Assembly (NCBI GenBank): GCA_044226205.1 | Contig: JBGAHL010000016.1 | Coordinates: forward strand, 8,208 to 72,207 | Origin: Saprospiraceae bacterium | GTDB lineage: Bacteria > Bacteroidota > Bacteroidia > Chitinophagales > Saprospiraceae | DNA length: 64,000 bases | Direction: 5' to 3' | In this document: piece by piece, positions 1,161-61,980 of the stretch | Layout: the number at the start of each line of letters is the position of its first letter | How positions within the stretch are numbered: position 1 is the stretch's first letter | Notes under the pieces: model-generated | What the model was told of the DNA's origin: nothing | The model's input: the letters and a program-made list of their open reading frames with translations, nothing else | The model's database searches: none | Program-made: the position numbers and the translations under genes

Positions 1161-2912
1161 TTACGACAAATATTTCGCTTCAATCGGCATCCTTCGGCCC
1201 ATGCCGAATGCCTTGGGACTTACGCGCAGCACGGGCGCGGCCTGTTCTCTTTTGAATTCGCTGATATTGACCAGTCGCAACACCCGCGCCACCAAATCGT
1301 GATCGAAGCCCTGGGCTTCCAGTTCGCGGGGCCCCTGCCGCCGCTCGATGTACTGGTAGAGCAACTGATCGAGCACCTCGTAAGGCGGCAGGCTGTCGGT
1401 GTCTTTTTGTCCGGGCCGCAACTCGGCGCTGGGCGGTTTGGTGATGGAATTGAGGGGGATGAGACCGCCGCCGCGGAGGGCCCCACCCCCAACCCCTCCC
1501 CCCAAGGGGAGGGGAGCCGATCCGAGCTGGGAACCACTCCCCTCCCCTTGGGGGGAGAGGTTGGGGGTGGGGCCTCCCGCATAGCAATCATTTATGTACT
1601 TCGCCAGTTCGTACACCTCCGTTTTATACACGTCTGCCAGCACGGCGAGGCCGCCGCAAAGATCACCGTAGAGGGTGCCGTAGCCGACCGACATTTCGCT
1701 TTTGTTGGTCGTATTGAGCAGGATGTTGCCGAATTTGTTCGACATGGCCATCAGCAAGGTGCCACGTACGCGAGCCTGGATGTTTTCTTCCGTGACGTTG
1801 AACGGGAGATCCTTGAAAAAAGGCTGCAAAGCGCCCTCAAAGGCATCGTACATGTTTTTGATGGGGACAATGTCGTACTGGATGCCGAGGTTTTCGGCAA
1901 GGTCGCGGGCGTCGTCGACGGAGTGGCCGGTGCTGAACTGGCTGGGCAGGAGCAGCACCCGGACATTTTCCTTGCCCAGCGCCTTGACCGCCAGCACAGT
2001 CGTCACAGCCGAGTCGATGCCGCCGGAAAGGCCGAGAATGGCTTTTTTGAAGCCGAGTTTGTGGAAATATTCGCGGATGCCTTCTACCAGGGCATCGTGG
2101 ATGAGCCGGGTTTTGTCCTTGGGTTGCTCGGCATCGCGGCCGCCGCGCGCCACCTCGTCGAGGTCATACACGCGCAGGCATTCCTCAAAATAGGGCATCT
2201 CGTCGAACACCTTGCAGTCGGGCGAAACCACGAGGCTGCCGCCGTCGAAAATAATGTCGGTCTGGGCGCCCACGTGGTTGGCGTAGAACATGGGCACGCC
2301 GTAGCGCTCCACATTGGTTTTTACCGTGTGAATACGCAGGGTGGCGTGGGTGTAGTCGAAGGGCGAAGCGGAAAGGTTGAGGATGAAATCCGGGCGCTCG
2401 TCCATCATTTCATCGAGTGGACAAATTTTGTACAGCGGGTTTTCATTGCCCACATTCCAGATGTCTTCGCAGATCGAGAGCGCTATTTTTTTGCCTTTAA
2501 AATTAAAGGTATGAAACTCGGTGGCCGGCTCGAAGTAGCGGTACTCGTCAAAAATATCGTAGGTCGGCAACAGGGTTTTGTGCTGTACGCCCAAAATCCG
2601 GCCTTCCCAAAGGAAAAAAGCCGAGTTGTGCAGATCCTTGCCTTCCCGAACGGGGTTGCGTGTCGGCGAACCCACGACGATGGCGATATCGCGGGAGGCT
2701 TCGCGCAGTTTTTCCACGGAGGCGTCGCTGCGGCGGATAAAGTCGTCGAATTCAAGGAAGTCGCGGGGTGGGTAGCCGCAGGTGGCCAGTTCGCCGAAAC
2801 AAATCAGGTCGGCGCCCTGCCGGCGGGCCTCCGCCGCGGCATCGAGCATTTTCTGGAGGTTGCCTTCGAAGTTGCCGATATGGTAGTTGAGTTGAGCCAG
2901 GGCTATTTTCAT
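1161..2912 (-). CDS. nadE: glutamine-dependent NAD+ synthetase (N-terminal CN-hydrolase domain plus NAD synthase domain)
   Basis: Start taken at MKIALAQLNYH, Met19 of ORF 1161..2966. The nitrilase-type motifs CFGELATCGYP and ALSICEDIW and the PP-loop LGLSGGIDSAV are present. The C-terminal block ITKPPSAELRPGQKDTDSLPPY is typical of NadE. Confidence 0.93.
   Translation of the reverse strand: MKIALAQLNYHIGNFEGNLQKMLDAAAEARRQGADLICFGELATCGYPPRDFLEFDDFIRRSDASVEKLREASRDIAIVVGSPTRNPVREGKDLHNSAFFLWEGRILGVQHKTLLPTYDIFDEYRYFEPATEFHTFNFKGKKIALSICEDIWNVGNENPLYKICPLDEMMDERPDFILNLSASPFDYTHATLRIHTVKTNVERYGVPMFYANHVGAQTDIIFDGGSLVVSPDCKVFDEMPYFEECLRVYDLDEVARGGRDAEQPKDKTRLIHDALVEGIREYFHKLGFKKAILGLSGGIDSAVTTVLAVKALGKENVRVLLLPSQFSTGHSVDDARDLAENLGIQYDIVPIKNMYDAFEGALQPFFKDLPFNVTEENIQARVRGTLLMAMSNKFGNILLNTTNKSEMSVGYGTLYGDLCGGLAVLADVYKTEVYELAKYINDCYAGGPTPNLSPQGEGSGSQLGSAPLPLGGGVGGGALRGGGLIPLNSITKPPSAELRPGQKDTDSLPPYEVLDQLLYQYIERRQGPRELEAQGFDHDLVARVLRLVNISEFKREQAAPVLRVSPKAFGMGRRMPIEAKYLS
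1464..1586. repeat. nested palindromic repeat element inserted in-frame in nadE
   Basis: The 42-nt arms 1475-1516 and 1537-1578 are reverse complements at 39 of 42 positions, with a 20-nt spacer. Each arm contains a cccctcccc/ggggagggg mini-hairpin. The element is translated as a Gly/Pro-rich segment of about 41 aa. Confidence 0.7.
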
Positions 2913-2933
2913 GCGACGGGTAGTTTTATGCGG

Positions 2934-2941
2934 CAAATGTA
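2934..2941 (-). promoter_or_regulatory. Bacteroidota -7 box (TAcaTTTG) upstream of nadE
   Basis: The reverse complement of caaatgta is TACATTTG, matching the TAnnTTTG consensus. It lies about 22 nt upstream of the nadE ATG. Confidence 0.4.
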
Positions 2942-3115
2942 GTGCCTGCGGGCAGATGGGATCCAATGGATTTAGCGGCGCTGAAATTTATGGAAACGAA
3001 AAGATTCACTTTCAGCACGCTATTTTTCAACAAAATCCAAAGCCTGCTGTCTGACGTATCTTGTAAATCTTGACCAAGAAGCCCTCAAAACCAGTCCGCA
3101 AGCAACCGGAACGTT

Positions 3116-4727: not shown

Positions 4728-6698
4728 ATGATTACCGCCAAAACCGTCCGGGAAATCCTCGACGCAGTCCGTATCGAAGAAGTGATCGAGGAGTTTGTGA
4801 GCCTGCGCCGCCGCGGGATCAACCTGATTGGTTTGTGCCCTTTCCACCACGAAAAAACGCCGTCGTTCAACGTCAATCCTGCGCGCAACCTGTTCAAGTG
4901 TTTTGGCTGCGGCAAAGCCGGCGACGCCATCACGTTCCTGCGCGAACACGAGCAGTTCTCTTACCCGGAAGCCCTGCGCTGGCTGGCCAGAAAGTACAAT
5001 ATCGAGATCGAAGAGGCAGAACTCAGTCCCGAGCAGCGGGCCGCCGATCAGATGGCCGAGTCCTTGTACATCGTCAATGATTTTGGTCTGAAGCATTTTC
5101 AGGAGCAACTGTTCGACACCGACGAGGGCAAATCCGTGGCGCTTTCCTACTTCCGTCAGCGCGGCCTGCGCGAAGACACGATCCGCACTTTCGGGCTGGG
5201 CTACGCCCCCGACCAGCGCGACCTGCTCATGCAACGGGCGCGCACGACCGGCCACTCCGTGGAATTGCTCAAAAAAGTCGGGCTCTGCAGCAACGACGGT
5301 TCGCGGGATTTTTTTCGCGGACGAGTCATGTTCGCCATTCACAACCTCTCGGGAAAAGTGGCCGCTTTCGCGGGCCGCACGATGTCGGCCGACAAGTCGG
5401 TTCCGAAATACATCAACAGCCCGGAAACCGAGATTTATGTCAAAAACAAAACCCTTTACGGCGCATTTCAGGCTAAAAAAGCCATTCGCCAGCAGGATGA
5501 ATGCATCCTGGTCGAGGGTTATATGGACGTCATTTCGCTGTACCAGGCCGGCATCGAAAACGTGGTGGCCAGCAGCGGCACCTCGCTGACGGAAGGACAA
5601 CTCAACCTCATCCGCCGCAACACCAACAACCTCAAAATTCTGTACGACGGCGATCCGGCGGGCATCAAAGCAGCCCTTCGCGGCCTCGATCTGGCCCTCG
5701 AACAGGACCTCAATGTGCGCATCGTACTGTTGCCCGATGGCGAAGACCCTGACAGCTACGTGCAAAAGGTCGGCAGCGAGGCTTTTCTGGAATATGTGGC
5801 CCGCGAAGCGAAGGATTTTATCCTGTTCAAAACCCAGCTGTTGCTGTCGGAGATCAAAGGCGACCCGATCAAAAAAGCGGGTTTGGTGAAAGATATCGTT
5901 GCCAGTATTTCCCGTATTCCCGACCCGATCAAGCGCAGCGTTTACCAAAAAGAATGTGCCAGCCTGCTCGATGTAGCGGAGCCTGCGCTCGTGGAAGAAA
6001 CCAACAAACTGATCACGCAGGGCCTCAAAAAACAGGAAGAACGCAAGGCCCGCGCCCCCGAAGCAGCATCCGATTCGCCCGATGCGCAGCCCAACCCCGA
6101 GGTGCCGGTGGAAGATCCCGCGTTTGCACGGCCAAGGGAGCGTCCGATGGCACGCGGAGATGAGTTTCAGGAACGTTATATCATTCGACTTTTGGTGTTG
6201 TATGGCGATCAAATACTACCCGAAGGCGTATCCGTGGCCGAGTACATTTTGGCTGATATCGAGGATTCGCTAGGTAGTTTTGACAATCCGCTTTATGGGA
6301 AAATTGCGACGGAATGCCATGATTTACTGCTTCAAAATCAAAATGTGGATTCCAATTATTTCCTGAGTCATACGAATCGTGATGTGCAAAGTTTGGCGCT
6401 TGATTTTCTGAATGAGCCTGATGAATACTCACCCAATTGGGAAGAACGGTACAATTACCCCTTGCAAAACCAAAAGCCGCCCGAGTTCAATTTTGATCCT
6501 GATACGCGCCAGGCCTTGGATCGGTTCAAAATCCGGAAAATTGAAAAAATGGTAGACATCAATAAATCGCGCCTGAAATCGGCCCAGGAGCAAGGCGATG
6601 TAGAAAATGTGGAACGTTATGTAAAAATCCACATGAAACTGACCGATGCTCGTAACGACGTGATCCGCCGTGCAGGTACTGTGGTAATCCCCAAATAG
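4728..6698 (+). CDS. dnaG: DNA primase
   Basis: The zinc-ribbon CPFHHEKTPSFNVNPARNLFKCFGCGKAGD and the TOPRIM motifs LVEGYMDVISL and LYDGDPAG are present. Confidence 0.93.
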   Translation: MITAKTVREILDAVRIEEVIEEFVSLRRRGINLIGLCPFHHEKTPSFNVNPARNLFKCFGCGKAGDAITFLREHEQFSYPEALRWLARKYNIEIEEAELSPEQRAADQMAESLYIVNDFGLKHFQEQLFDTDEGKSVALSYFRQRGLREDTIRTFGLGYAPDQRDLLMQRARTTGHSVELLKKVGLCSNDGSRDFFRGRVMFAIHNLSGKVAAFAGRTMSADKSVPKYINSPETEIYVKNKTLYGAFQAKKAIRQQDECILVEGYMDVISLYQAGIENVVASSGTSLTEGQLNLIRRNTNNLKILYDGDPAGIKAALRGLDLALEQDLNVRIVLLPDGEDPDSYVQKVGSEAFLEYVAREAKDFILFKTQLLLSEIKGDPIKKAGLVKDIVASISRIPDPIKRSVYQKECASLLDVAEPALVEETNKLITQGLKKQEERKARAPEAASDSPDAQPNPEVPVEDPAFARPRERPMARGDEFQERYIIRLLVLYGDQILPEGVSVAEYILADIEDSLGSFDNPLYGKIATECHDLLLQNQNVDSNYFLSHTNRDVQSLALDFLNEPDEYSPNWEERYNYPLQNQKPPEFNFDPDTRQALDRFKIRKIEKMVDINKSRLKSAQEQGDVENVERYVKIHMKLTDARNDVIRRAGTVVIPK

Positions 6699-7165
6699 CT
6701 ACATACGTTTTGCCGCGATGCGGCGCCCTTCGATCCGCCGGCAACCATGTGCTACATACGTGATGCCGCGATGCGGCAGGGTTTGCTCCGTGTAAAATCA
6801 TGAGATTTGGATGCAAGGATTTTGGTTTTCGAGAATATTCAACTGATGCTTCAAAGTCTAGTTGTTTTCTATTGACCGAACCCTGCCGCATCACGCATGT
6901 AGCACATGGTTTTCCGGGGAATGAACCCTGCCGCATCGCGGCATCACGTATGTAGCACATGGTTTTCCGGGGATCGAGCCCTGCCGCATCGCGGCATAAC
7001 GTATGTAGCACATGGTTTGCCGGCGGATCGAACCCTGCCGCATCGCGGCATAACGTATGTAGCACATGGTTTTCCGGGGATCGAATCCTGTCGCATCGCG
7101 GCATCACGGTATGTAGCACATGGTTGTCGGCGGATCGAAGGGCACCGCATCGCGGCATAACATAT
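6699..7165. repeat. REP-like repeat array (about 53-54-bp units)
   Basis: Direct copies of gaaccctgccgcatcgcggcatcacgtatgtagcacatggttttccggggatc start at 6878, 6923, 6976, 7030, 7083 and 7137 (the last is partial). Two inverted copies lie at 6699-6790. Each unit has gccgc-N3-gcggc and catgt-N3-acatg hairpins and a GTAG tetranucleotide. The outermost units, 6699-6751 and 7112-7165, are inverted copies of each other. Confidence 0.8.
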
Positions 7166-7337: not shown

Positions 7338-7799
7338 ATGGCCAATACTTACACTCAACTCTACATCCAGTTGGTTTTTGCTGTTAAACACAGAAATGCA
7401 CTCATTGAAAAAAGTTGGAAAGAGGAGATACACAGGTACATCACTGGGATCGTGGAAAATAATGGTCATAAACTACTGCGTGTACATGCCATGCCAGACC
7501 ACATCCACATTTTGATCGGTTATCATCCCGATCAGTCCATCGCGGATCTGGTAAAAGAAATCAAAATGTCGTCCAATCATTTTATCAATGAACAAAAGCT
7601 AAGTTCACGGCTGTTTGCCTGGCAAAAAGGATACGGAGCATTTTCTTACAGCCGCTCACAAGTACCGATGGTAGCGCGATATATTGAAAATCAAGAGCAG
7701 CATCACGCCGGCAAGAATTTTCAGCAGGAATATTTGAGTATCCTGAATAATGCCGGAGTTCCTTCCGATCCCCGTTATTTGTTCGAGTTTTTTGATTAA
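7338..7799 (+). CDS. IS200/IS605-like Y1 (HUH) transposase homolog, likely a REP-associated tyrosine transposase (RAYT-like)
   Basis: The protein is 153 aa, with the HUH motif PDHIHILIG and the Tyr region GYGAFSYSRSQVPMVARYIENQEQHH. It is a single gene without tnpB, lies next to the REP-like array, and has lower GC than its neighbours. Confidence 0.8.
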   Translation: MANTYTQLYIQLVFAVKHRNALIEKSWKEEIHRYITGIVENNGHKLLRVHAMPDHIHILIGYHPDQSIADLVKEIKMSSNHFINEQKLSSRLFAWQKGYGAFSYSRSQVPMVARYIENQEQHHAGKNFQQEYLSILNNAGVPSDPRYLFEFFD

Positions 7800-15628: not shown

Positions 15629-15735
15629 GGAAAGTCAGCAGCGGTTTGATTTGACCGGCCAAAAATAGGGGCTTGGTAAATGCAAGCGAGCGTTAGAATG
15701 CTATTTGTCAAAACGAGACGGAAAGGAGGGCGGAG

Positions 15736-15940
15736 AGGTGTGGGTTTGGTGGACAGGATTTACAGGATTTTTTTGATTAAAAAGGGGAGTAGACCTTGCC
15801 AATGTTGTTTTGGCGGTGGGAAAAGGAAAGGGCGGAGAATCTACCCGCACGCGGCCGCCCAGACAACCAATTACTCAACCACAATTTATCCCCATTTTAA
15901 TCAAAAAATCCTGTAAATCCTGTCCATCAACCCCACACCT
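15736..15940. repeat. MITE-like element with ~46-bp terminal inverted repeats
   Basis: The left arm 15736-15783 is aggtgtgggtttggtggacaggatttacaggatttttttgattaaaa. The right arm 15895-15940 is its reverse complement with a few mismatches or indels. The core is about 110 bp and non-coding. Confidence 0.6.
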
Positions 15941-15957
15941 GTCCCGCAAAAAAACGG

Positions 15958-17926: not shown

Positions 17927-17970
17927 GGGGTTTTATAAACCCTTATAAACCATAATAAACCGCATAAACC
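17927..17970. repeat. tandem ~9-10-bp repeats (yATAAACC, about 4 copies)
   Basis: The sequence is ggggttttataaacccttataaaccataataaaccgcataaacc. It belongs to the same TTATAAACC family as the elements at 41903-42010 and 43721-43828. Confidence 0.6.
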
Positions 17971-19260: not shown

Positions 19261-19444
19261 TTTCACCGCAAAGACACAAAGACGCAAAGGGGGCGCGAAT
19301 TTCTTGGCGTCTTAGCGTCTTGGCGGTGAAAAGCAAAGGCACAAAGGGGCGCGAATTTCTTGGCGTCTTAGCGTCTTGGCGGTGAAAAGCAAAGGCACAA
19401 AGGGGCGCGAATTTCTTGGCGGCTTTGCGTCTTGGCGGTGAAAA
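19261..19444. repeat. three tandem copies of a 56-bp repeat with imperfect internal dyad symmetry
   Basis: gcgcgaat recurs at 19293, 19349 and 19405, giving a 56-bp period. The unit is tgaaaagcaaaggcacaaaggggcgcgaatttcttggcgtcttagcgtcttggcgg. Confidence 0.8.
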
Positions 19445-19523
19445 TGTGCAAGCGGGTATAGTCCTTACTCCCCCCTCTCTTTTCAATACAAATCCTCGCC
19501 TGCCGCTCCACAAAAAATTGCAA

Positions 19524-19999: not shown

Positions 20000-21856
20000 A
20001 TGTTTCGATGGTTAAGCCTTTGCGGGGCCTTGCTTCTTTGCGCCCTGGTTCTTCCCGCCCAAAACCTCAACACCACTTTTCGCTCCAAAATGACTTTTAC
20101 CGGCCAAACCCTTGCGAACGTCTGGGGATATACGGCTGGGGGCCGTGAATATGCCCTGCTTGGCGCCCGCAACGGCCTTATTATCGTGGATATCACCGAC
20201 CCGGACAACCCGACCCAGATCGTCCAAATCCCCGGCCCGGCCAATTTGTGGAAGGAGATCAAAACCTATTCGCACTACGCTTACGTGGTGTCGGAAGGCG
20301 GTTGGGGCGTCCAGATCATCGATTTGTCCGGCCTGCCTTCTCCCAACCTCACCTACCACAGCTACAATGGCGACGGGGCGATCAATGGCCAGTTCAACAA
20401 GGCGCACGCCCTGCATATCGATACGACCAAAGGCTTTTTGTACGCCCACGGCAGCAACCTGTTCAGCGGCGGGCCGGTCATTCTGAACCTGAACCCCGAC
20501 CCCTACAATCCGACTTTTGCCGGCAAATACAACCAGCAAGGCTACGTGCACGACGGGTACGCCGACAACGATACCTTGTACGCAGGGCATATTTATGCGG
20601 GCACTTTTGCCATTGTGGATTGCACGGACAAGAACAATCCGGTCGTGCTGGCTACCCAGCAGACGCCCAACAATTTTACCCACAACACCTGGCCCTCGGC
20701 CGATAAAAAAACCTTGTTCACGACCGACGAAACCAACAACTCGTTTCTCGCCTCCTACGACATTTCCGACCCGACCGATATCAAATTGCTGGACAAAATC
20801 CAGAGCAACCCGGGCTCGAACTCCATTGTGCACAATACGCACATCCTCAATCAGTTCGCGGTAACTTCCTGGTACAAAGACGGCTTTACCATCGTGGATG
20901 TAACCCGCCCGGCCAACCTCGTTCAGGTGGGCAATTATGACACTTATCCGATTGGCGGCAGCGGCTTCGACGGCTGCTGGGGCGTGTATCCGTTTTTCCC
21001 GTCGGGCACCATCATCGCGTCCAATATCAATGCGCAGGGCACGAGTAACGGCGAATTATTCATCGTTACGCCCAACTACGTGCATGCCTGCTGGATCGAA
21101 GGAACCATTACCAGCGCGGCCACCGGCGCCGTGTTGTCGGGCGCGCAGGTGAGCGTTTTGGGGAGCAACCCGCTGACGCAGGGCCAAAGCGCCGTGGACG
21201 GGCAGTACAAAATCGGGCAGGAGCAGGCCGGGCTGTTTACCGTTCAGGTCAGCCTTGCGGGGTATCAAACTGCCAATATCCCGGTCCAGTTGGTCAATGG
21301 AGAACTGACGGCGCTCAACGTGGCTCTTTTTCCGCTGGGCGGTATCGTGGTGGATGGTGAAGTGCGCCGTTTCGGCACGCTGGAAACGGTGCCCGACGCC
21401 ACGGTCTGTTTGTACAGCGATGACAATACCTATTGCACCACGACCGATGCCTCCGGTCATTTTTCCATCTCCGACGTGCTGCCTGGCGTGTACGACGTGG
21501 CCGCCTCGGCCGACACGGTTGGCCTGACCATGCAATACCGGCAGGTGCTGGCGACCAATTCGTCGCTGGTGCTCGAACTTTACCCATACCATCGCCGCGA
21601 CGTGGCCGGGCCCGGGACGAGTGCTGCCGACTGCCTGGCCTCGCCCAATCCGTTTGCGACGGCGACCCGCCTTGCGTTTCATTTTTCCGGCGGCACGCAT
21701 GACATAAAAGTGTTCAATGTGGCGGGTAAAATGATCGAACGCCACATGCCCGAAGGGCAGGACGGGGTGATTGAACTGGGTGAAAACTGGTCGCCCGGCG
21801 TTTATCTGATCGGCATCGAGGGACAGGCGCCTTTGAAATTGATAAAAATGAAATGA
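20000..21856 (+). CDS. LVIVD-repeat (choice-of-anchor-B-like) beta-propeller protein with a CarboxypepD_reg-like domain and T9SS CTD (paralog 1)
   Basis: A signal peptide is present. LVIVD-type repeats include GLIIVDITDPDNP, GVQIIDLSGLP, FAIVDCTDKNNP, YDISDPTDI and FTIVDVTRPANL. The C-terminus is ASPNPFATATRLAF...GVYLIGIEGQAPLKLIKMK. Confidence 0.8.
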   Translation: MFRWLSLCGALLLCALVLPAQNLNTTFRSKMTFTGQTLANVWGYTAGGREYALLGARNGLIIVDITDPDNPTQIVQIPGPANLWKEIKTYSHYAYVVSEGGWGVQIIDLSGLPSPNLTYHSYNGDGAINGQFNKAHALHIDTTKGFLYAHGSNLFSGGPVILNLNPDPYNPTFAGKYNQQGYVHDGYADNDTLYAGHIYAGTFAIVDCTDKNNPVVLATQQTPNNFTHNTWPSADKKTLFTTDETNNSFLASYDISDPTDIKLLDKIQSNPGSNSIVHNTHILNQFAVTSWYKDGFTIVDVTRPANLVQVGNYDTYPIGGSGFDGCWGVYPFFPSGTIIASNINAQGTSNGELFIVTPNYVHACWIEGTITSAATGAVLSGAQVSVLGSNPLTQGQSAVDGQYKIGQEQAGLFTVQVSLAGYQTANIPVQLVNGELTALNVALFPLGGIVVDGEVRRFGTLETVPDATVCLYSDDNTYCTTTDASGHFSISDVLPGVYDVAASADTVGLTMQYRQVLATNSSLVLELYPYHRRDVAGPGTSAADCLASPNPFATATRLAFHFSGGTHDIKVFNVAGKMIERHMPEGQDGVIELGENWSPGVYLIGIEGQAPLKLIKMK

Positions 21857-21884
21857 ACGATCCTGCATTCAGGGTGTAAACAAG

Positions 21885-21926
21885 GCGGAGATTCGGGTAC
21901 AAAAAGCGGCCCGAATCTCCGCTTTT
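21885..21926 (+). terminator. rho-independent terminator
   Basis: A 13-bp stem gcggagattcggg/cccgaatctccgc is followed by TTTT. Confidence 0.65.
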
Positions 21927-22020
21927 CGTTTACAAGGTCACGCTCGTCGAAAAAAGAGCGTCCAATGAGCAACCCTGCACCCTTATTTGTGGTCTCCTGT
22001 CACAAAAAAATCACCTGGTT

Positions 22021-24435
22021 ATGAAATCAATTTTCCGACTCTTCTGTGTCGGCCTGTTCCTGTCGTTTGGCTTGTCTACCTTGTCTGCCCAAAACCTGAA
22101 CATTGCCTTCCGCTCCAAACTCACCATTCCCAACCAGACCCTGGCCAATATTTGCGGCTACGCCGCCAACGGGCATGAATACGCCTTGCTGGGCGCATCG
22201 AAAGGGTTGATTATCGTCGAAGTAACGAACCCTGACGCTCCCCAGCAAATCGTTCAGATCCCGGGTCCCGACAACCTGTGGAAAGAAATCAAAACCTACA
22301 AACACTACGCTTACGTGACCAGCGAAGGCGGCCAGGGCGTGCAAATTGTCGACCTCAACGGCTTGCCCGGCTCCACGCTCAATTACCATCACTATACCGG
22401 CGACGGCGACATCGCGGGCGAACTCAATACCATTCACGCCCTGCACATCGATACGACCAAAGGATTCCTGTACGCCTACGGCAGCAACCTGTTCAATGGC
22501 GGGGCCGTCGTACTCGACCTGAACGCGGACCCGTACAACCCCACTTATGCCGGTAAATTTGATGCCTACGGGTATATCCACGATGGCTGGGTCGACAACG
22601 ACACCCTGTACGGGTCGCACATTTACAACGGCTTCTTTTCCATTGTGAATATGGCGGACAAAAGCAATCCTGTGCCGCTCGGCCTCGAATTCACGCCCAA
22701 CAGTTTTACCCACAACACCTGGATGTCGAAAGATCGAAAAGTGATCTTCACGACCGACGAAGTGGACAACTCCTACCTCGGGGCATACGATATTTCCGAT
22801 CCGACGGATATCAAATTTTTGGATAAAATCCAGGCCAATCCCGGCTCCAACGCGGTCGTTCACAATACGCATATCCTTGAAAATTATGCCGTTACCTCCT
22901 GGTACACCGAGGGGGTGAGCATCGTGGATGTTACCGAGCCCGACAATCTGGTTCAGGTAGGATTATTCGATGTGGCGCCTGCATTTCAGGGCGGCGGCTT
23001 CGACGGCTGCTGGGGTGTGTATCCCTTCCTGCCGTCCGGCAATCTCATTGCATCCGTGATTCCCACGACCAGTTCGCCCGGCGGCGGCGAATTGTGGGTG
23101 CTGACGCCGACCTACACCCGGGCTTGCTACCTCGAAGGGGTGGTGACCGACGCGTCCAATTCCTTGCCCCTCAACGGCGCCAAGGTTGAAATTTTGGGCG
23201 GAGAAAATATCCAGGCGGCGCTGACCAATACCAGCGGCCAGTTCAAAACGGGACATGCCGCGGCTGGTACCGTCGATGTCAAGGTGAGTAAGCCGGGTTA
23301 CACGCCCGTCACTGTTTCGGTGCCCCTGGCCACGGCCGTCATTGCCGTGGTGAACGTGGCGCTGGTCCCCCTGCCTACGGTGACGGTCAGCGGTCAGGTC
23401 CTCGAAACCGGCACCAATGCCCCCGTCGCCAACGCGGTTGTCGCCCTCAGCAGCGATGACGGCCTCCATTTTGACGTGGCGACCGACGGTAACGGACAGT
23501 TCTCGCTGTCGGGTGTTTATTCCGGGCAGTACGACATGGTGGCCGGCGCCTGGGGCTACGGCTACGCCCTCAAAAACAACCAGAACGTCAATGGCGGCCA
23601 GTCATACAATTTCTTCCTGGCCAAAGGCTACCGCGACGATTTCGCGCTCGACTACGGCTGGGAAGTCAGCGGTACTTCGACCGAAGGCGTCTGGGAACGC
23701 GCCGAGCCGCAGGGTATCAACGTTGGCGTTGTGCTTTGCCCCGAAACCGATTTCTCGGGCGACGTGGGCGATCAGTGCTACGTCACCGGCAACGGCAACC
23801 CCGGCGTGGATGCCGACGACGTGGAAAGCGGCACCGCGATCCTTCGTTCGCCGGTCATGGACCTGACCACCTATACGCATCCTGTGGCTCGGGGCGTCTA
23901 TTTTTTCACCAGCATAACTTTTGACAACGAGTCGCTGGATTCCATCAAATTTTACATCGAAAACGGCACCGACGAGGCGCTGCTTCTGGCTGCGCCAGGG
24001 TTTAATTTTAGCTGGCAAATCCTCAACAAGCCCATCGAGCCGCTGATCGCCATCACCTCGACCATGCGCCTGCGCATCGAGTGTTACGACAACCCGAATT
24101 ACATCGGGGTAGATTCCTACGAAGCGGTTTTCGACGATTTTAAAATTGCGGCAGGAGCAGCCAGCGCTACCCTCGAACCCTTTGAAGGAGTGCAATTGAC
24201 CGTGCGTCCCAATCCTTTCCGGGGGCAAGCCATTCTCGATTACACCACGCCGGCAGGCGGCGAGTACCAGGTCGTGGTGACCGATCTGCTGGGTCGTGAG
24301 GTGGAAACGTACACGGTGGACGGCACCGGCGGCTACCTGTCGGTGGGCGCCGAACTGAGGCCGGGTGTTTACACAGCCCGCCTTCAGCGCGATGGACAAG
24401 TGTCGCAGCCGGTCAAATTGATCAAAGCCGAGTAA
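22021..24435 (+). CDS. LVIVD-repeat protein with two CarboxypepD_reg-like domains, a MAM/jelly-roll-like domain and T9SS CTD (paralog 2)
   Basis: By eye, the N-terminal ~330 aa are about 65% identical to paralog 1 (QNLN..FRSK.., WKEIKTY.HYAYV.SEGG.GVQI.DL). The C-terminus is VRPNPFRGQAILDY...GVYTARLQRDGQVSQPVKLIKAE. Confidence 0.8.
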   Translation: MKSIFRLFCVGLFLSFGLSTLSAQNLNIAFRSKLTIPNQTLANICGYAANGHEYALLGASKGLIIVEVTNPDAPQQIVQIPGPDNLWKEIKTYKHYAYVTSEGGQGVQIVDLNGLPGSTLNYHHYTGDGDIAGELNTIHALHIDTTKGFLYAYGSNLFNGGAVVLDLNADPYNPTYAGKFDAYGYIHDGWVDNDTLYGSHIYNGFFSIVNMADKSNPVPLGLEFTPNSFTHNTWMSKDRKVIFTTDEVDNSYLGAYDISDPTDIKFLDKIQANPGSNAVVHNTHILENYAVTSWYTEGVSIVDVTEPDNLVQVGLFDVAPAFQGGGFDGCWGVYPFLPSGNLIASVIPTTSSPGGGELWVLTPTYTRACYLEGVVTDASNSLPLNGAKVEILGGENIQAALTNTSGQFKTGHAAAGTVDVKVSKPGYTPVTVSVPLATAVIAVVNVALVPLPTVTVSGQVLETGTNAPVANAVVALSSDDGLHFDVATDGNGQFSLSGVYSGQYDMVAGAWGYGYALKNNQNVNGGQSYNFFLAKGYRDDFALDYGWEVSGTSTEGVWERAEPQGINVGVVLCPETDFSGDVGDQCYVTGNGNPGVDADDVESGTAILRSPVMDLTTYTHPVARGVYFFTSITFDNESLDSIKFYIENGTDEALLLAAPGFNFSWQILNKPIEPLIAITSTMRLRIECYDNPNYIGVDSYEAVFDDFKIAAGAASATLEPFEGVQLTVRPNPFRGQAILDYTTPAGGEYQVVVTDLLGREVETYTVDGTGGYLSVGAELRPGVYTARLQRDGQVSQPVKLIKAE

Positions 24436-24488
24436 AGTCGGAGCAGTGCAAAAACGAAAGAGGCTGTCTCATAAGTCCTTGCGGCCAA

Positions 24489-24520
24489 CTGACGGGGTGA
24501 CTACAAAGTCACCCCGTCAG
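24489..24520 (+). terminator. strong hairpin, possible terminator (no T-run)
   Basis: A 13-bp stem ctgacggggtgac/gtcaccccgtcag has a 6-nt loop. No U-tract follows. Confidence 0.4.
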
Positions 24521-24554
24521 TAATAACCTGAAGGCAAATAAACCTGCCGCGGCG

Positions 24555-24562
24555 TACATTTG
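24555..24562 (+). promoter_or_regulatory. Bacteroidota -7 box (TAcaTTTG) upstream of dapB
   Basis: TACATTTG ends only 6 nt before the ATG at 24569. Confidence 0.4.
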
Positions 24563-24568
24563 CCGGGT

Positions 24569-25291
24569 ATGAAAATCGGACTTTTCGGCTACGGCAAAAT
24601 GGGTCGTGCCATTGAACAAATAGGGCTTGCGCAAGGCCACGACATCGCCTGGCGCATCAATCGCTCCAGTCAGCAAGAGCTGACGCCGGAACTGCTCCGG
24701 CAAGCCGATGTGGTCATCGAATTCACCCGCCCCGACGCGGCTTTTGACAATGTCATGTTTTGCCTGAGCCATGGCGTGCCGGTTGTCAGCGGCACCACGG
24801 GCTGGCTCGACCGGCTGCCGGCCGCGCAGGAGTTTTGTGTCGACAAGGGCGGCGCCTTGCTCTGGGCTTCCAATTTCAGCGTGGGCGTCAACCTGTTTTT
24901 TGCCCTCAACCGCTACCTCGCCAGGCTGATGAACACCCGTGCCGAATACGAAGCCGCCGTGACCGAGACCCACCACATCCACAAACTGGATGCACCCAGC
25001 GGAACGGCGCTCACGCTCACCCAGGATATCCTCGCGGCCGTCGACCGGCTCGAAGGCTGGGCGTTCGATGCTGGTTCGGCCGAAGGCTCGGGGATCGTTC
25101 CTGTAACGGCTATTCGCGAGGGCGAGGTGCCCGGCACGCACCAGATTCGCTGGACCGGGCCGGTGGACGAGATCACGATCGAACACAAAGCCCGGTCGCG
25201 CACAGGGTTTGCCGCCGGCGCAGTGCTGGCAGCCGAATGGTTGCTGGGCCGAAAAGGGGTGTTCTGTATGGGGGATGTGCTGGGTTTGTGA
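24569..25291 (+). CDS. dapB: 4-hydroxy-tetrahydrodipicolinate reductase
   Basis: Begins MKIGLFGYGKMGRAI (NAD(P)-binding). The signature ETHHIHKLDAPSGTA is present. Confidence 0.9.
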   Translation: MKIGLFGYGKMGRAIEQIGLAQGHDIAWRINRSSQQELTPELLRQADVVIEFTRPDAAFDNVMFCLSHGVPVVSGTTGWLDRLPAAQEFCVDKGGALLWASNFSVGVNLFFALNRYLARLMNTRAEYEAAVTETHHIHKLDAPSGTALTLTQDILAAVDRLEGWAFDAGSAEGSGIVPVTAIREGEVPGTHQIRWTGPVDEITIEHKARSRTGFAAGAVLAAEWLLGRKGVFCMGDVLGL

Positions 25292-25419
25292 GTTACTGAG
25301 GGCTCTACTCACTTAAAAGGCTTGTTCGGCTTTCGTTTAGTGGTATTGGATAAGTAGGGGGGACGTTGATTCAAAAAGCGGGATTCTTTTGTTTCCGAAA
25401 AAACTCAAGACAAAAGACT

Positions 25420-27816
25420 ATGCGCCCAATTTGTAACACCGTCCTGATCGCCGTTTTGTTGACGGCTGTTTTCGGCCTCTCCGCCCAGAACCTGAACATA
25501 GCTTATCGCTCCAAGCTATTTTTCCCGGAAAGAACATTATACAATGTCGGCGGTTATGCCTCGGATGGCAAGGAGTATGCCCTGGTTTGTACTGGCGAAG
25601 CGCTTGCCATCGTCGATGTTTCCAACCCGGACCAGCCCGAATGGATCACAGAGATACCCTGTTCATATTCGGTTGAGGTGAAAACCTATTCTCACTATGC
25701 GTACACGAGTGGTGATTGGAACGATGGTGTCACGATCATTGATTTGTCCGGCTTGCCAGGCTCTATCCTCGATTGGTATTTATTCGAGGGCGAAGGGGCA
25801 GTTGCTAACCAAATACCGGGTTGTCACACCCTGCATATCGATACAACCAGCGGTTATTTGTATACCTATGGCGTGGCGTTTTCCGGGGGCGCTGTGGTGT
25901 TTGATTTGAACGACGACCCCTATCACCCGGTGTTTGCCGGGAAATATGACCAATACGGCTACATACATGATGGGTTCGTGGACCATGACACCTTGTACGC
26001 TGCGCACATAAGCAGCGGCTTGTTTACCATTGTGGACATGACAGACAAATCCGCTCCGTCGGTGCTGGGCGTGCAATCTACACCCGGCAATTTTACCCAT
26101 AGCACATGGCTGACCAATGACCGGAAAACCTTGCTGACCTCAGACGAGGTAACGGGGGGCTACCTGTCTGCATTCGACGTGAGTGACCCGACTGATATTC
26201 ATTTGCTGGATAAAATCCGGGTCATGCCGCTCAATGCCACTCCGACAATCCACAATATACATGTCCGGGGCAATTTTTCGGTCAATTCCTGGTATTCGGC
26301 AGGTGTCACGATCGTGGATATTACACACCCCGACAACCTGGTGGAAGTCGGGAGATTCGATGTTTATCCATTCAGCGACGTAGCCGGGTTTGACGGGTGT
26401 TTTGGTGTTTACCCCTATTTACCCTCCGGCAATCTGCTGGCTTCCGTTATGAACAACGGGACGGGAGGCGGAGAGCTATGGGTGCTGACACCCGATTATC
26501 AGCCTGCCTGTTTCCTTACCGGTCTGGTCACCGATGCATCGTCTGGAAATCCGCTCAACGGGGTACTGACCAAACTTCAAAACGGAGAAGAAGGCACGAC
26601 ACTACATACAGGAAGCGACGGCATTTTCCGGATGGGGCAGGCCTCGGGAGGGCAGTTTAATCTAATTGTTAGCAAACCTGGCTACTGGCCTCAATCCATT
26701 CCGGTAACGCTCTCACCGTCTTTAATCGTCGATTTGAATGTTGCCCTGGTTCCTGTTCCCACGATCACCCTGAACGGTCAGGTGCTCACGGCAGACAACC
26801 AGCCTGTCCCCCAGGCCAGGGTGGCCGCCTGGGCTGTAAACGGGCTGTATTTCGAAACGGAAACGGATGAAGAAGGCAATTATCTCTTGTCGGGCGTGAG
26901 TGAAGGGACATACCACCTTGTCGCCGGCGCCTGGGGCTTTGGGTACGAGGTAAATAGTAGCGTTCAACTTGCTGATGATCAGGAAATCAATTTTCTGATT
27001 GATCGGAAATATATCGACGACTTCTTTTTTGATTACGGCTGGGAAGTAAGCGGTACTTCCCCGACCGGCATCTGGGAACGCTGCGACCCGGTTGTCGCGG
27101 CCGATGAGTCAGGGTTAGTCATTGTACCGGAAAATGATGTGCCGGTGGGCGATATTGGTAGTTTGTGCTACACTACTGGAAACGGCCCTACATCCAGCCT
27201 GAACACCGTGCACGACGGAAGCGCAATACTCCGCTCTCCTGCAATGGATTTGAGCGCTTACAGCCAGCCGGTTTTTTCCGGAAAGGTATATTTTGCCTAC
27301 GGATTTGCTGCGAACCCGGTGTTCGACTCGCTGACAATCTATATTGAAAATGGCGATACGGAAAAAGTGCTTGCCCGTTTTGGCCGGGGATTCAACTGGC
27401 AAACCCTGAATGCCGTTATGCCGGGAGACATGGCGCTGAGTTCAAACATGCGCATCCGGGTTGAATGCAATTCCACGACAGTAGCACCGTCTATAGGTCT
27501 TGAAGCCACCTTCGATCATTTTGCCGTAATGGAAGGTGCGTCAAGCCAGGTTGCTTTGCCCGACAGAAACATCTTTGTAAAAAGCAGCCCCAATCCTTTT
27601 GTTTCCAATACCCGGCTCGAATGTGTCTTGAACAACGGTGAGCATTGGCAGCTGGTCGTCCGTGACGTGCTTGGCCAAAAGGTGTGGCAAAACGAGGTGC
27701 AAGGCCCGGACTGCAGTCTCGAAATTGGAAATGACTGGCAGCCCGGTTTCTATTTCGCACGACTTGAGCAAGCCGGCCGTGTTAGCCCGGCGCTAAAAAT
27801 CGTCAAAACAAAATAA
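25420..27816 (+). CDS. LVIVD-repeat protein with CarboxypepD_reg-like, MAM/jelly-roll-like and T9SS CTD domains (paralog 3, more diverged)
   Basis: The signal peptide is MRPICNTVLIAVLLTAVFGLSAQ. The domain order matches paralog 2. The C-terminus is SSPNPFVSNTRLEC...GFYFARLEQAGRVSPALKIVKTK. GC is visibly lower than in paralogs 1 and 2. Confidence 0.8.
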   Translation: MRPICNTVLIAVLLTAVFGLSAQNLNIAYRSKLFFPERTLYNVGGYASDGKEYALVCTGEALAIVDVSNPDQPEWITEIPCSYSVEVKTYSHYAYTSGDWNDGVTIIDLSGLPGSILDWYLFEGEGAVANQIPGCHTLHIDTTSGYLYTYGVAFSGGAVVFDLNDDPYHPVFAGKYDQYGYIHDGFVDHDTLYAAHISSGLFTIVDMTDKSAPSVLGVQSTPGNFTHSTWLTNDRKTLLTSDEVTGGYLSAFDVSDPTDIHLLDKIRVMPLNATPTIHNIHVRGNFSVNSWYSAGVTIVDITHPDNLVEVGRFDVYPFSDVAGFDGCFGVYPYLPSGNLLASVMNNGTGGGELWVLTPDYQPACFLTGLVTDASSGNPLNGVLTKLQNGEEGTTLHTGSDGIFRMGQASGGQFNLIVSKPGYWPQSIPVTLSPSLIVDLNVALVPVPTITLNGQVLTADNQPVPQARVAAWAVNGLYFETETDEEGNYLLSGVSEGTYHLVAGAWGFGYEVNSSVQLADDQEINFLIDRKYIDDFFFDYGWEVSGTSPTGIWERCDPVVAADESGLVIVPENDVPVGDIGSLCYTTGNGPTSSLNTVHDGSAILRSPAMDLSAYSQPVFSGKVYFAYGFAANPVFDSLTIYIENGDTEKVLARFGRGFNWQTLNAVMPGDMALSSNMRIRVECNSTTVAPSIGLEATFDHFAVMEGASSQVALPDRNIFVKSSPNPFVSNTRLECVLNNGEHWQLVVRDVLGQKVWQNEVQGPDCSLEIGNDWQPGFYFARLEQAGRVSPALKIVKTK

Positions 27817-39910: not shown

Positions 39911-39988
39911 AGTGATGAGTGATGAGTGATGAACGATGAGTTTTACGATTGGAATAAACTCATCACTCATCACTCATCACTCATCACT
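39911..39988. repeat. long hairpin built from GTGATGA heptamer repeats (terminator-like)
   Basis: The left arm is agtgatgagtgatgagtgatgaacgatgagttt (39911-39943). The right arm 39956-39988 is its reverse complement with 2 mismatches. The loop contains ttttacgatt, and TCTTTT follows. Confidence 0.7.
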
Positions 39989-41902: not shown

Positions 41903-42010
41903 AAGGTGGGTTGATGAGGTTGATATAGTTTATTAGGTTGATGAGGTTTATAAGATTGATGGTCAAGTGTTTATAAACCTCGTCAACCTTATAAACCCTA
42001 TCAACCCTAT
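41903..42010. repeat. hairpin element built from GGTTGATGA / GGTTTATAA 9-mers
   Basis: aggttgatgaggtttataag (41935-41954) pairs with ttataaacctcgtcaacct (41971-41989). Additional ggttgat and ttataaacc units flank the stem. Confidence 0.55.
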
Positions 42011-42011
42011 T

Positions 42012-42050
42012 AAAAAAGAGCCGTCATGTCGAACATGGCGGCTCTTTTTT
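42012..42050. terminator. bidirectional rho-independent terminator
   Basis: An 11-bp stem agagccgtcat/atggcggctct (one G-U pair) is flanked by A5 and T5-6. It lies between convergent genes. Confidence 0.75.
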
Positions 42051-42068
42051 AATAGGGGACGATTCGTT

Positions 42069-43720: not shown

Positions 43721-43828
43721 GTTGATTATGGTTGATAAGGGTTGATGAGGGTTTATAAAAATTGATCATTCACGAACAAAATCAACCTTTATAAACCTTT
43801 ATAAACCTTCATAAACCCTTATCAATCA
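43721..43828. repeat. hairpin element built from GGTTGATrAGG / TTTATAAACC units
   Basis: gttgattatggttgataagggttgatgagggtttataaaa lies opposite tttataaacctttataaaccttcataaacccttatcaa. The right end overlaps the stop codon of the TonB-dependent receptor gene. Confidence 0.55.
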
Positions 43829-61756: not shown

Positions 61757-61980
61757 GATAGAGGGCGAAAGGTGGAGGGCAGAAGGTTTTTACGATTTTT
61801 TTAAAGGCCTAGCAGGGGCAGCGCCCCGAAAGATTTGTAGTAAATGGCGGAGAAAACAGGCCAGGAGGGGCAGCGCCCCGAAACATCTTTCGGGGCGCTG
61901 CCCCTCCTGAATGGATTTTGGTACTAAAAGACTACAAATATTACGGGGCGCTGCCCCTGCCAAAGTTTTTTACGATTTGT
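61757..61980. repeat. composite palindromic repeat cluster built on GCAGGGGCAGCGCCCC
   Basis: A perfect 21-bp-stem hairpin lies at 61863-61908 (aggaggggcagcgccccgaaa-catc-tttcggggcgctgcccctcct). It is bracketed by an outer inverted pair 61812-61841 / 61931-61960 and by direct tttttacgattt motifs at about 61788 and 61966. Confidence 0.75.

Follow-up and report, generated by a model that had tools for sequence, protein, structure and literature searches.

How does an essential enzyme come to carry, translated within its reading frame, a long palindrome built almost wholly of runs of C and G? The question is raised by nadE, the gene for glutamine-dependent NAD+ synthetase, in a 64,000-nucleotide stretch of the genome of a Saprospiraceae bacterium (contig JBGAHL010000016.1), referred to here as the window. 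The element lies at 1464-1586 of the window and gives NadE 41 codons at a place where its orthologues usually have three. The reading I favor, with a probability of roughly 0.6, is that it is a structure-prone repeat doublet, similar to repetitive extragenic palindromic (REP) sequences and tolerated in a permissive, disordered loop. It would then behave like the Rickettsia palindromic elements (RPE) while belonging to a different known class of repeats.

The host gene occupies 1161-2912 on the minus strand and encodes 583 amino acids, with the ATG at 2912 as the likely start within an open reading frame (ORF) of 1161-2966 (minus strand). Its product has the Pfam domains CN_hydrolase (residues 2-252) and NAD_synthase (273-558). 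The closest proteins are P0001, 99% identical, and NAD+ synthases of Saprospiraceae and Lewinellaceae metagenome-assembled genomes (MAGs), 73-91% identical. A first, sequence-only reading of this DNA had described an in-frame insertion, and that description is correct: residues 443-483, delimited on the minus strand by alignment to orthologues and structures and by an AlphaFold2 (AF2) model, form the Pro/Gly-rich sequence DCYAGGPTPNLSPQGEGSGSQLGSAPLPLGGGVGGGALRGGG between VYELAKYIN and LIPLNSITKPPSAELRP, and GPTPNLSPQGEGSGSQLGSAPLPLGGGVGGGA is a stretch of this predicted peptide. The frame is kept without a stop, all six frames being open across the element. The same reading had put an ORF at 1220-1591 on the opposite strand; it is actually on the minus strand, another frame of the strand that encodes NadE. 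It was right that NadE proteins normally have very little here. The loop is 3 residues long (of the type D-G-E) in 76 of the 113 parsable close orthologues, and PDB 5kha has a 5-residue connector where the window NadE has 41. The insert is lineage-specific: aligned orthologues mostly lack it, and an empty site with a short loop is seen in L126/P0003, the sister of the window clade.

The gene is intact and functional, under strong purifying selection, and hardly a decayed pseudogene. The ratio of nonsynonymous to synonymous substitution rates (dN/dS) is 0.034 against L005, 0.048 against L001, and 0.12 against L126, the catalytic and ATP-binding motifs (E41, K112, C148, and SGGIDS) are invariant in the alignment, and the order of genes at the locus is kept in five relatives. 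In the AF2 model, residues 446-481 lack secondary structure and have a predicted local distance difference test (pLDDT) score of 26-31, directly after a helix at 430-445. The expectation that the insertion falls in a loop is thereby borne out as far as a model with a mean pLDDT of only 63 can bear it out: the insert sits in a predicted disordered connector between helix 430-445 and the conserved segment IP..KPPSAELRP.

What sort of DNA encodes this loop? A repeat search of the window finds an inverted repeat of 54+54 nt (108 nt) at 1473-1526/1527-1580, which belongs to neither strand and whose arms are 87% complementary; it includes the outer stem GCGGAGGG/CCTCCCGC. As RNA, the region of the element folds with -126.2 kcal/mol, compared with -74.6 +/- 4.4 for shuffled versions (z = -11.8, with 0 of 200 shuffles as stable). 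It had been reported that 1475-1516 and 1537-1578 are reverse complements at 39 of 42 positions, separated by 20 nt, and they are; the spacer, CCGATCCGAGCTGGGAACCA (1517-1536), is non-palindromic and has no strand of its own. It had also been reported that each arm contains a 9-bp mini-hairpin, CCCCTCCCC/GGGGAGGGG. This is perfect in one arm (1493-1501/1506-1514), and in the other (1539-1547/1552-1560) only 8 of the 9 positions pair.

The hairpin is part of a larger module of 34 nt, CCCCTCCCC-N4-GGGGAGGGG-TT-GGGGGTGGGG, consisting of a C-stem of 9 nt and its complementary G-stem, likewise of 9 nt, with a 4-nt loop between them, followed after a turn of 2 nt by another G-stem that is the mirror of the first one, T standing opposite A. 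The G-strand of the module, with four G-tracts, is a candidate for a G-quadruplex (G4). Module A (1481-1514, minus strand) reads, on the coding strand, CCCCTCCCC-TTGG-GGGGAGGGG-TT-GGGGGTGGGG, in the order C-stem, loop, G-stem, loop, mirrored G-stem. Module B (1539-1572, plus strand) reads CCCCTCCCC-TTGG-GGGGAGAGG-TT-GGGGGTGGGG on the plus strand, with one stem mismatch. Both were delimited by the mini-hairpin and by a scan for triplex motifs and G4, and the G/C-rich palindrome is these two copies set as an inverted doublet with their tails out. Under the rule used in the scan (stems of 8-9 nt or longer, at most one mismatch), both arms fit the structural definition of an intrastrand triplex, with stems of 9 nt, loops measuring 4 and 2-3 nt, and a third block whose T faces the A of the G-stem. 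The scan of the 64-kb window for such motifs found nothing beyond the two nadE arms. The sequence-only reading had likened the G-rich arm to the heads of other, intergenic repeats in the window. This likeness has to be given up, in that GGGAGAGGTTGGGGGTGG, allowed up to 3 mismatches, matches the two arms only, and the G4/triplex scan agrees. A 30-nt arm pattern had 0 chance matches across 100 shuffles. Rfam returned for the element only sub-threshold models of microRNA-precursor hairpins, the generic noise of a long hairpin.

By their architecture, the arms are best classed as a sequence variant of the BoxC/PIT/TMECO kind, and not as TMECO in the strict sense. TMECO has the form 5'-CCCTCNCCC N3-6 GGGNGAGGG N3 GGGNGAGGG and is found in 23 copies in E. 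coli K-12, always intergenic, with five inverted pairs (PMC4666352). In vitro it adopts an intrastrand triplex of class II (purine motif); in vivo it showed no effect as a promoter or terminator or on polymerase; it has no known mobility gene, and its loci are locally unstable, palindromic pairs taking small deletions yet keeping the hairpin (PMC4666352). The nadE doublet has both the inverted pairing and the local instability, in the form of indels, duplication, collapse, and inversion in close relatives. A mirror-image motif from methanogenic archaea, GGGGGGTGGGGG-CA-GGGGAGGGGG-CTCG-CCCCCTCCCC, switches between hairpin, triplex, and G4 in vitro (PMC8044849), and the nadE module may form a triplex or a G4 as well.

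If the arms belong to a family of repeats, then similar modules should be found elsewhere. One genome per species was scanned for the hairpin alone, with no flanks required, giving at least 143 hairpins. Among the matches listed, 99 of 143 CCCCTCCCC/GGGGAGGGG hairpins carry a G4-5TG4-5 tail on one side, 2-3 nt after the G-stem, and 0 carry it on both; carriers of hairpin plus tail among them include Alphaproteobacteria, Cyanobacteria, Chloroflexota, Clostridia, Bacteroidota, and others. The scan made no demand on the flanks and still yielded a one-sided tail, in exactly the arrangement of the window arms. The full three-block pattern (28 specified bases) is found on 71 viral contigs. None of 182 complete modules has conserved flanks, and for 56 of them (31%) an inverted partner lies no more than 200 nt away. 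Other genomes contain multiple copies of the module, most of them outside genes. The CCCCTCCCC/GGGGAGGGG/GGGGGTGGGG variant is a genuine and widespread family.

Relatives of the module take other forms. In the Lewinellaceae MAG MFD03250.bin.1.64 (L109 3794-4018), four triplex-type modules stand head to tail about 63-66 nt apart, alternating between CCCCTCTCCC-GGAG-GAGAGGGG-CC-GGGGGTGAGG and CCCCTC(T/C)CCCC-T-GGGGAGGGG-CC-GGGGGAGAGG. A scan of metagenomes for the center of the nadE element (AGGGGAG..TCCNAGCTNGGA..CTCCCCT) gave 0 matches; the nadE site was absent too, and the species is apparently not in that collection. A second scan, for GGGGAGGGGAG N16-26 CTCCCCTCCCC, found mostly hairpins of mirror topology. 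Complete doublets with tails out made up 5 of its 120 matches, none with the spacer of the window. On human-gut contigs (L207, L209, L210, L214, L224, L230, L239, and L246) a conserved repeat is arranged in the mirror topology as GG(T)GGGG-TTT-GGGGAGGGGAG...long hairpin...CTCCCCTCCCC-AAA-CCCCACCCC, with near-identical copies on different contigs.

Some members of the family lie in frame within other genes. A search of a protein database with the 42-residue insert peptide yielded no candidate that had three 5-residue words in common with it, and further host proteins were sought by way of the DNA. Long open frames spanning modules, among the matches listed (at least 143), were examined with Pfam, and a case was counted when domains of one protein flank the module. 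Those counted are LeuRS of Sphingobium (L111, a doublet), IleRS of Sphingomonadales (L056) and of Caulobacterales (L073), PurL of the MAG of bacterium isolate ELA214 (L030), MnmG of an uncultured Alphaproteobacteria bacterium (L120, a MAG), MutS of Rhizobiaceae (L080), and an nSTAND1 NTPase of a cyanobacterium (L107). Alignment to solved structures confirms two of these, LeuRS with 34 residues where 6q89 has 9 and MnmG with 17 residues inserted with respect to 3cp2. Two cases are uncertain, L098, at a carA/carB junction, and L008. The ORFs of L058, L037, L032, L094, L081, L101, L108, and L112 were not counted, each being a read-through of two genes or without Pfam support. Among the matches listed, modules within genes thus number about 7-9 of 143, roughly 5%, far below what coding density predicts and consistent with strong filtering. 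In PurL (L030 1893-5654, minus strand, around residues 84-120) the G-tail block occurs three times in tandem, GEGSGVGSCPGEGSGVGSCPGEGPGVG, indicating that the third block of the module can amplify within a gene. The sequence-only reading had compared the nadE insertion to RPE. As regards behavior, in-frame residence in a housekeeping gene, the comparison is apt, because the repeat family of the arms is also found in frame in the housekeeping genes of other bacteria; the likeness shown is one of behavior and not of sequence.

The NadE loop itself has received modules in other Saprospirales. L129 has a single one, CCCCTCCCC-CCTT-GGGGAGGGG-AT-GGGGGTGGGG, essentially identical to an arm of the window; L130 has CCCCTCCCC-TCGG-GGGGAGGGG-CT-GGGGGTGAAG; L127 has a perfect 22-bp hairpin, ACCCCACCTCTGGCCCCTCCCC/GGGGAGGGGCCAGAGGTGGGGT, with the same core; and L128 has C7-GCC-G7-CT-G8. 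By the rule-based scan, triplex-type motifs in the sequences of L005, L127, and L128 are located only at the NadE loop. On a neighbor-joining tree made with the loop masked, the lineages with modules are scattered among clades with 3-residue loops, which suggests at least four independent acquisitions, an approximate count given the shallow tree. A separate class of longer loops, LPLG...NGE (+7), comprises 21 sequences, and L132, of that class, has no module-like DNA.

In the clade of the window, members of two 90% NadE clusters and their DNA give some history of the element. NadE forms of 583, 581, and 585 amino acids differ by 6-nt indels within the C- or G-tracts. A 623-residue form (L205, GCA_963169315.1) combines the intact doublet with a third arm that has decayed. 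A collapsed 570-residue form (L001) retains the outer ends only. Homology of this last insert has modest support by itself, 6 of 500 shuffles reaching the alignment score, and is strengthened by the existence of the intermediate form L205. In L204 and L205 the spacer is inverted, matching the reverse complement of the window spacer at 21 of 22 positions and its direct sequence at 13 of 22. The flip, which alters the center of the peptide from GSGSQLGSA to GSRSELGAT, would be the expected product of recombination between the arms. Since L204, L205, and the window all have doublet forms, the doublet is older than the separation of these lineages. No length variant in any lineage breaks the reading frame, and translational bypass or excision of the insert was judged unlikely on that account. 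Between the window and L205, four-fold degenerate sites differ at 3 of 27 positions in the whole loop, compared with 71 of 247 (28.7%) elsewhere in nadE (P = 0.028, for a region chosen post hoc). Inside the two modules, also chosen post hoc, 0 of 19 differ, where 5.5 would be expected.

How might such an anatomy, in frame, confined to certain lineages of a constrained gene, recurring in other genes and lineages, and rearranged in place, have come about? I propose that a pre-existing module was copied into the DNA of a permissive surface loop of NadE, by a copy-and-paste agent or by templated repair. The module is almost all C-runs and G-runs and is therefore open in all six frames, so that an insertion with a length divisible by three would read through as a flexible, disordered Pro/Gly peptide, itself probably neutral. 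Selection on the essential enzyme would remove only those variants that break the frame. Once in place, the palindrome would slip (the 6-nt indels), duplicate or lose arms, and recombine between arms, inverting the spacer, and the arms would be kept nearly unchanged by each other or by selection. The instability could arise from a hairpin, triplex, or G4 during replication, as has been proposed for TMECO.

Several observations weigh against this proposal. The case for mobility comes from recurrence only, since no target-site duplication, no link to a transposase, and no polymorphism between empty and filled sites within a species was found; around the element in the window there is no flanking direct repeat. 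A second copy of the module is absent from the 64-kb window and from about 60 kb of flanking DNA of relatives, so that within the window it is a single locus, inside a coding sequence, and neither interspersed nor intergenic. The arms (CCCCTCCCC TTGG GGGGAGGGG TT GGGGGTGGGG) depart from the published TMECO consensus in the position of the interrupting base, and formation of a triplex in vivo is unsupported even for TMECO (PMC4666352). Repeated capture at one loop, in genomes that seem otherwise poor in the motif, is not explained by random insertion and filtering alone. Finally, the element is old, conserved in its nucleotides, and rearranged in situ, more than is predicted of a selfish insert passively tolerated: the conservation of the arms hints at conversion of one arm by the other or at selection on the nucleotides, neither of which a neutral passenger predicts.

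This last point leads to an alternative in which the structure of the nucleic acid is what is selected. A hairpin, G4, or triplex in nadE mRNA or DNA might serve as a translational pause between segments of NadE, as an element governing mRNA stability or regulation, or as a signal in replication or recombination, the peptide being a by-product. The near identity of the arms of the window and L205, despite the divergence of four-fold sites elsewhere, is what this would predict, as is the retention of the palindrome in three lineages since their split. So too is the persistence of C or G at third codon positions, when Pro and Gly codons are four-fold degenerate, and the capture of modules by at least four NadE lineages. 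Still, L001 lost the structure and its gene functions under the same constraint, most orthologues do without any insert, and PIT/TMECO showed none of the effects on promoter, terminator, or polymerase function that were sought in vivo (PMC4666352). Conversion between arms could produce the same conservation without selection, and the statistics, besides being post hoc, draw on one or two branches. I consider selected structure unlikely. Somewhat more doubtful is the idea that nothing was inserted at all and that a Pro/Gly loop, selected as protein, gave rise to the palindrome as a side effect, CCN and GGN being reverse complements, and then had it sharpened by slippage and by template switching at quasi-palindromes. 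The loop does vary in length, with many Pro/Gly variants, such as the 21 sequences of the LPLG...NGE class; indels typical of slippage are present; and the window lacks another copy of the module. Against this, the 34 nt, third block and turn included, are shared with viral contigs and with the noncoding DNA of many phyla, and independent NadE lineages have the core CCCCTCCCC/GGGGAGGGG/GGGGGTGGGG. Besides, the +7 class, as seen in L132, lacks such DNA, the flip of the spacer changed the peptide without consequence, and the insert peptides differ widely between lineages.

A possible agent of insertion is close at hand. An IS200-like Y1 transposase gene (7338-7799, plus strand; Pfam Y1_Tnp, E = 1.8e-28) lies between dnaG and a gene of the metallo-beta-lactamase fold. 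Ahead of the transposase gene, at 6698-7165, some eight REP-like units of 53 nt form an array. Every unit has the hairpin GCCGCGATGCGGC and a GTAGC tag, and two of them (6698-6802) are inverted relative to the rest. Gene and array together look like a classic locus of REP with a REP-associated Y1 transposase (RAYT). It is present in the window and in L005 and absent at the same place in L001, L204, and L205. The nadE spacer CGATCCGAGCTGGGAACCA (1517-1536) resembles a segment of one REP unit, CGATCCGCCGGCAACCA (6731-6747), and the pattern CGATCC N1-7 GGNAACCA, derived from those two sites, occurs in the 64 kb at those two sites only. The nadE element might then be a REPIN mobilized by this transposase, 5.8 kb away: Y1_Tnp is encoded in both the window and L005, next to an array tagged with GTAG, the doublet has the architecture of a REPIN, and the spacer shares CGATCC..GG.AACCA with a REP unit, although the pattern was derived post hoc. 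I find this very improbable. GTAG and CTAC are absent from 1464-1586, and the hairpin differs from those of the REPs beside the transposase gene. L204 and L205, which like L001 have no Y1_Tnp at the locus, still carry the intact doublet. The doublet is older than the insertion of the RAYT. Because the local gene is flanked by a different repeat and relatives keep the doublet without it, it was rejected as the mobilizer. There remains the trivial explanation, an artefact of assembly or a decaying pseudogene. Chimeric reads can create palindromes, but the element is found, with small differences, in independent ENA, Logan, and NCBI assemblies (P0001, P0121-P0125, P0127, and P0131, one of them on 15 contigs), and the intact frame, the conserved catalytic motifs, dN/dS values of 0.03-0.12, and conserved synteny leave this explanation next to no chance.

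To return to a module copied into a tolerant loop, a bolder version can be stated, which is possible, if doubtful. The module may be a copy-and-paste family of DNA that crosses phyla, travels also on viral contigs, and, being free of stops in six frames, colonizes coding DNA as readily as intergenic DNA. Within genes it would be maintained at the level of nucleotides, by selection for hairpin, G4, or triplex or by conversion between arms, and would flip in situ, creating "coding palindromes" in essential genes, with preferred sites such as the NadE loop.

What would follow from the more modest proposal? Repeats of the BoxC or intrastrand-triplex type have been known for 25 years, with neither a function nor a mechanism of spreading established. 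Here a variant of the motif lives, translated, inside essential genes, in contrast to its strictly intergenic description in E. coli. The literature searched for the BoxC/PIT/TMECO class does not describe in-frame copies in coding DNA, flips of orientation, or repeated capture by a single protein loop. Such loci are natural experiments, bearing on whether the motifs are mobile, whether non-B structures of DNA or RNA are selected, and how proteins tolerate Pro/Gly inserts of 12-80 residues. For annotation, they account for a class of odd Pro/Gly-rich loops of low complexity in conserved enzymes.

The window has repeats of other kinds. A perfect 43-nt palindrome, GTAAAAACTTAGGCAGGGGC|GCTGCCCCTGCCTAAGTTTTTAC, lies at 1105-1147, 14 nt downstream of the nadE stop, and a cluster of inverted repeats at 61811-61960 contains its core GCAGGGGCGCTGCCCCTGC again, with 3 mismatches; these may be a second small family of repeats or shared bidirectional terminators. 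Three tandem 56-nt units (98% and 77% identical) at 19287-19454 are bracketed by 49-nt inverted repeats (19241-19289/19415-19463). Intergenic repeats include inverted 55-nt arms 103 nt apart (15732-15944), a palindrome of (AGTGATG)n heptamers with 33-nt arms that are 94% complementary (39911-39988), and decamers of the type TTATAAACC in inverted pairs at 17931-17968, 41911-42057, and 43729-43828. At a larger scale, three paralogous stretches of about 2-3.4 kb within 20054-27090, starting near 20054, 22084, and 25480 and with blocks that are 62-94% identical, suggest that related large genes form a family in tandem here.

Among known systems, the closest to the nadE element are the BoxC/PIT/TMECO repeats (Hoyne et al. 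2000; Holder et al. 2015, PMC4666352). Both are some 34-37 nt long, occur singly or in inverted pairs with no conserved flanks or mobility gene, and suffer local instability in which small deletions leave a hairpin. They differ in their stems, CCCCTCCCC/GGGGAGGGG/GGGGGTGGGG as against CCCTCNCCC/GGGNGAGGG/GGGNGAGGG, and in their setting, the one coding, translated, and long conserved in Bacteroidota (Saprospirales), the other reported from E. coli K-12 as always intergenic. The G4/hairpin/triplex motifs of Methanomicrobiaceae (PMC8044849) and the "G4-hairpin-duplex switch" of E. coli (PMC5100583) are built from the same blocks, GGGGGTGGGG, GGGGAGGGG, and CCCCTCCCC, and competition between hairpin, triplex, and G4 has been demonstrated in vitro for the archaeal motif (PMC8044849). 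That motif, unlike the nadE element, runs in mirror topology from G-tail through G-arm and loop to C-arm, is intergenic only, and is not described as coding doublets. REP/REPIN-RAYT systems (e.g. PMC3733652) also consist of short hairpin repeats, as singlets and inverted doublets, and the window does encode a Y1 transposase accompanied by a REP array of its own; the nadE element, however, lacks both the GTAG and the CGTC tag, differs from the repeat flanking the local Y1 gene, and persists as a doublet in relatives without Y1. Set beside transposable elements of the miniature inverted-repeat kind (MITEs), it is wholly inverted repeat, with no flanking direct repeat in the window. In behavior it is nearest to RPE and to MITEs that likewise lie in frame (the QMITE of Coxiella and intragenic ERIC; reviewed in PMC10969869), palindromic repeats of about 100-150 bp that lie in frame in housekeeping genes and are translated and tolerated in surface loops. 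The module of nadE is instead about 34 nt of G/C tracts, has no conserved encoded peptide, and is spread across phyla, where RPE are of one genus. Last, coding palindromes are reported from the mitochondria of Nematomorpha, long inverted repeats translated within essential protein-coding genes (PMC6649704), which makes them alike in kind to the nadE palindrome, in an animal, in an organelle, and in another type of sequence.

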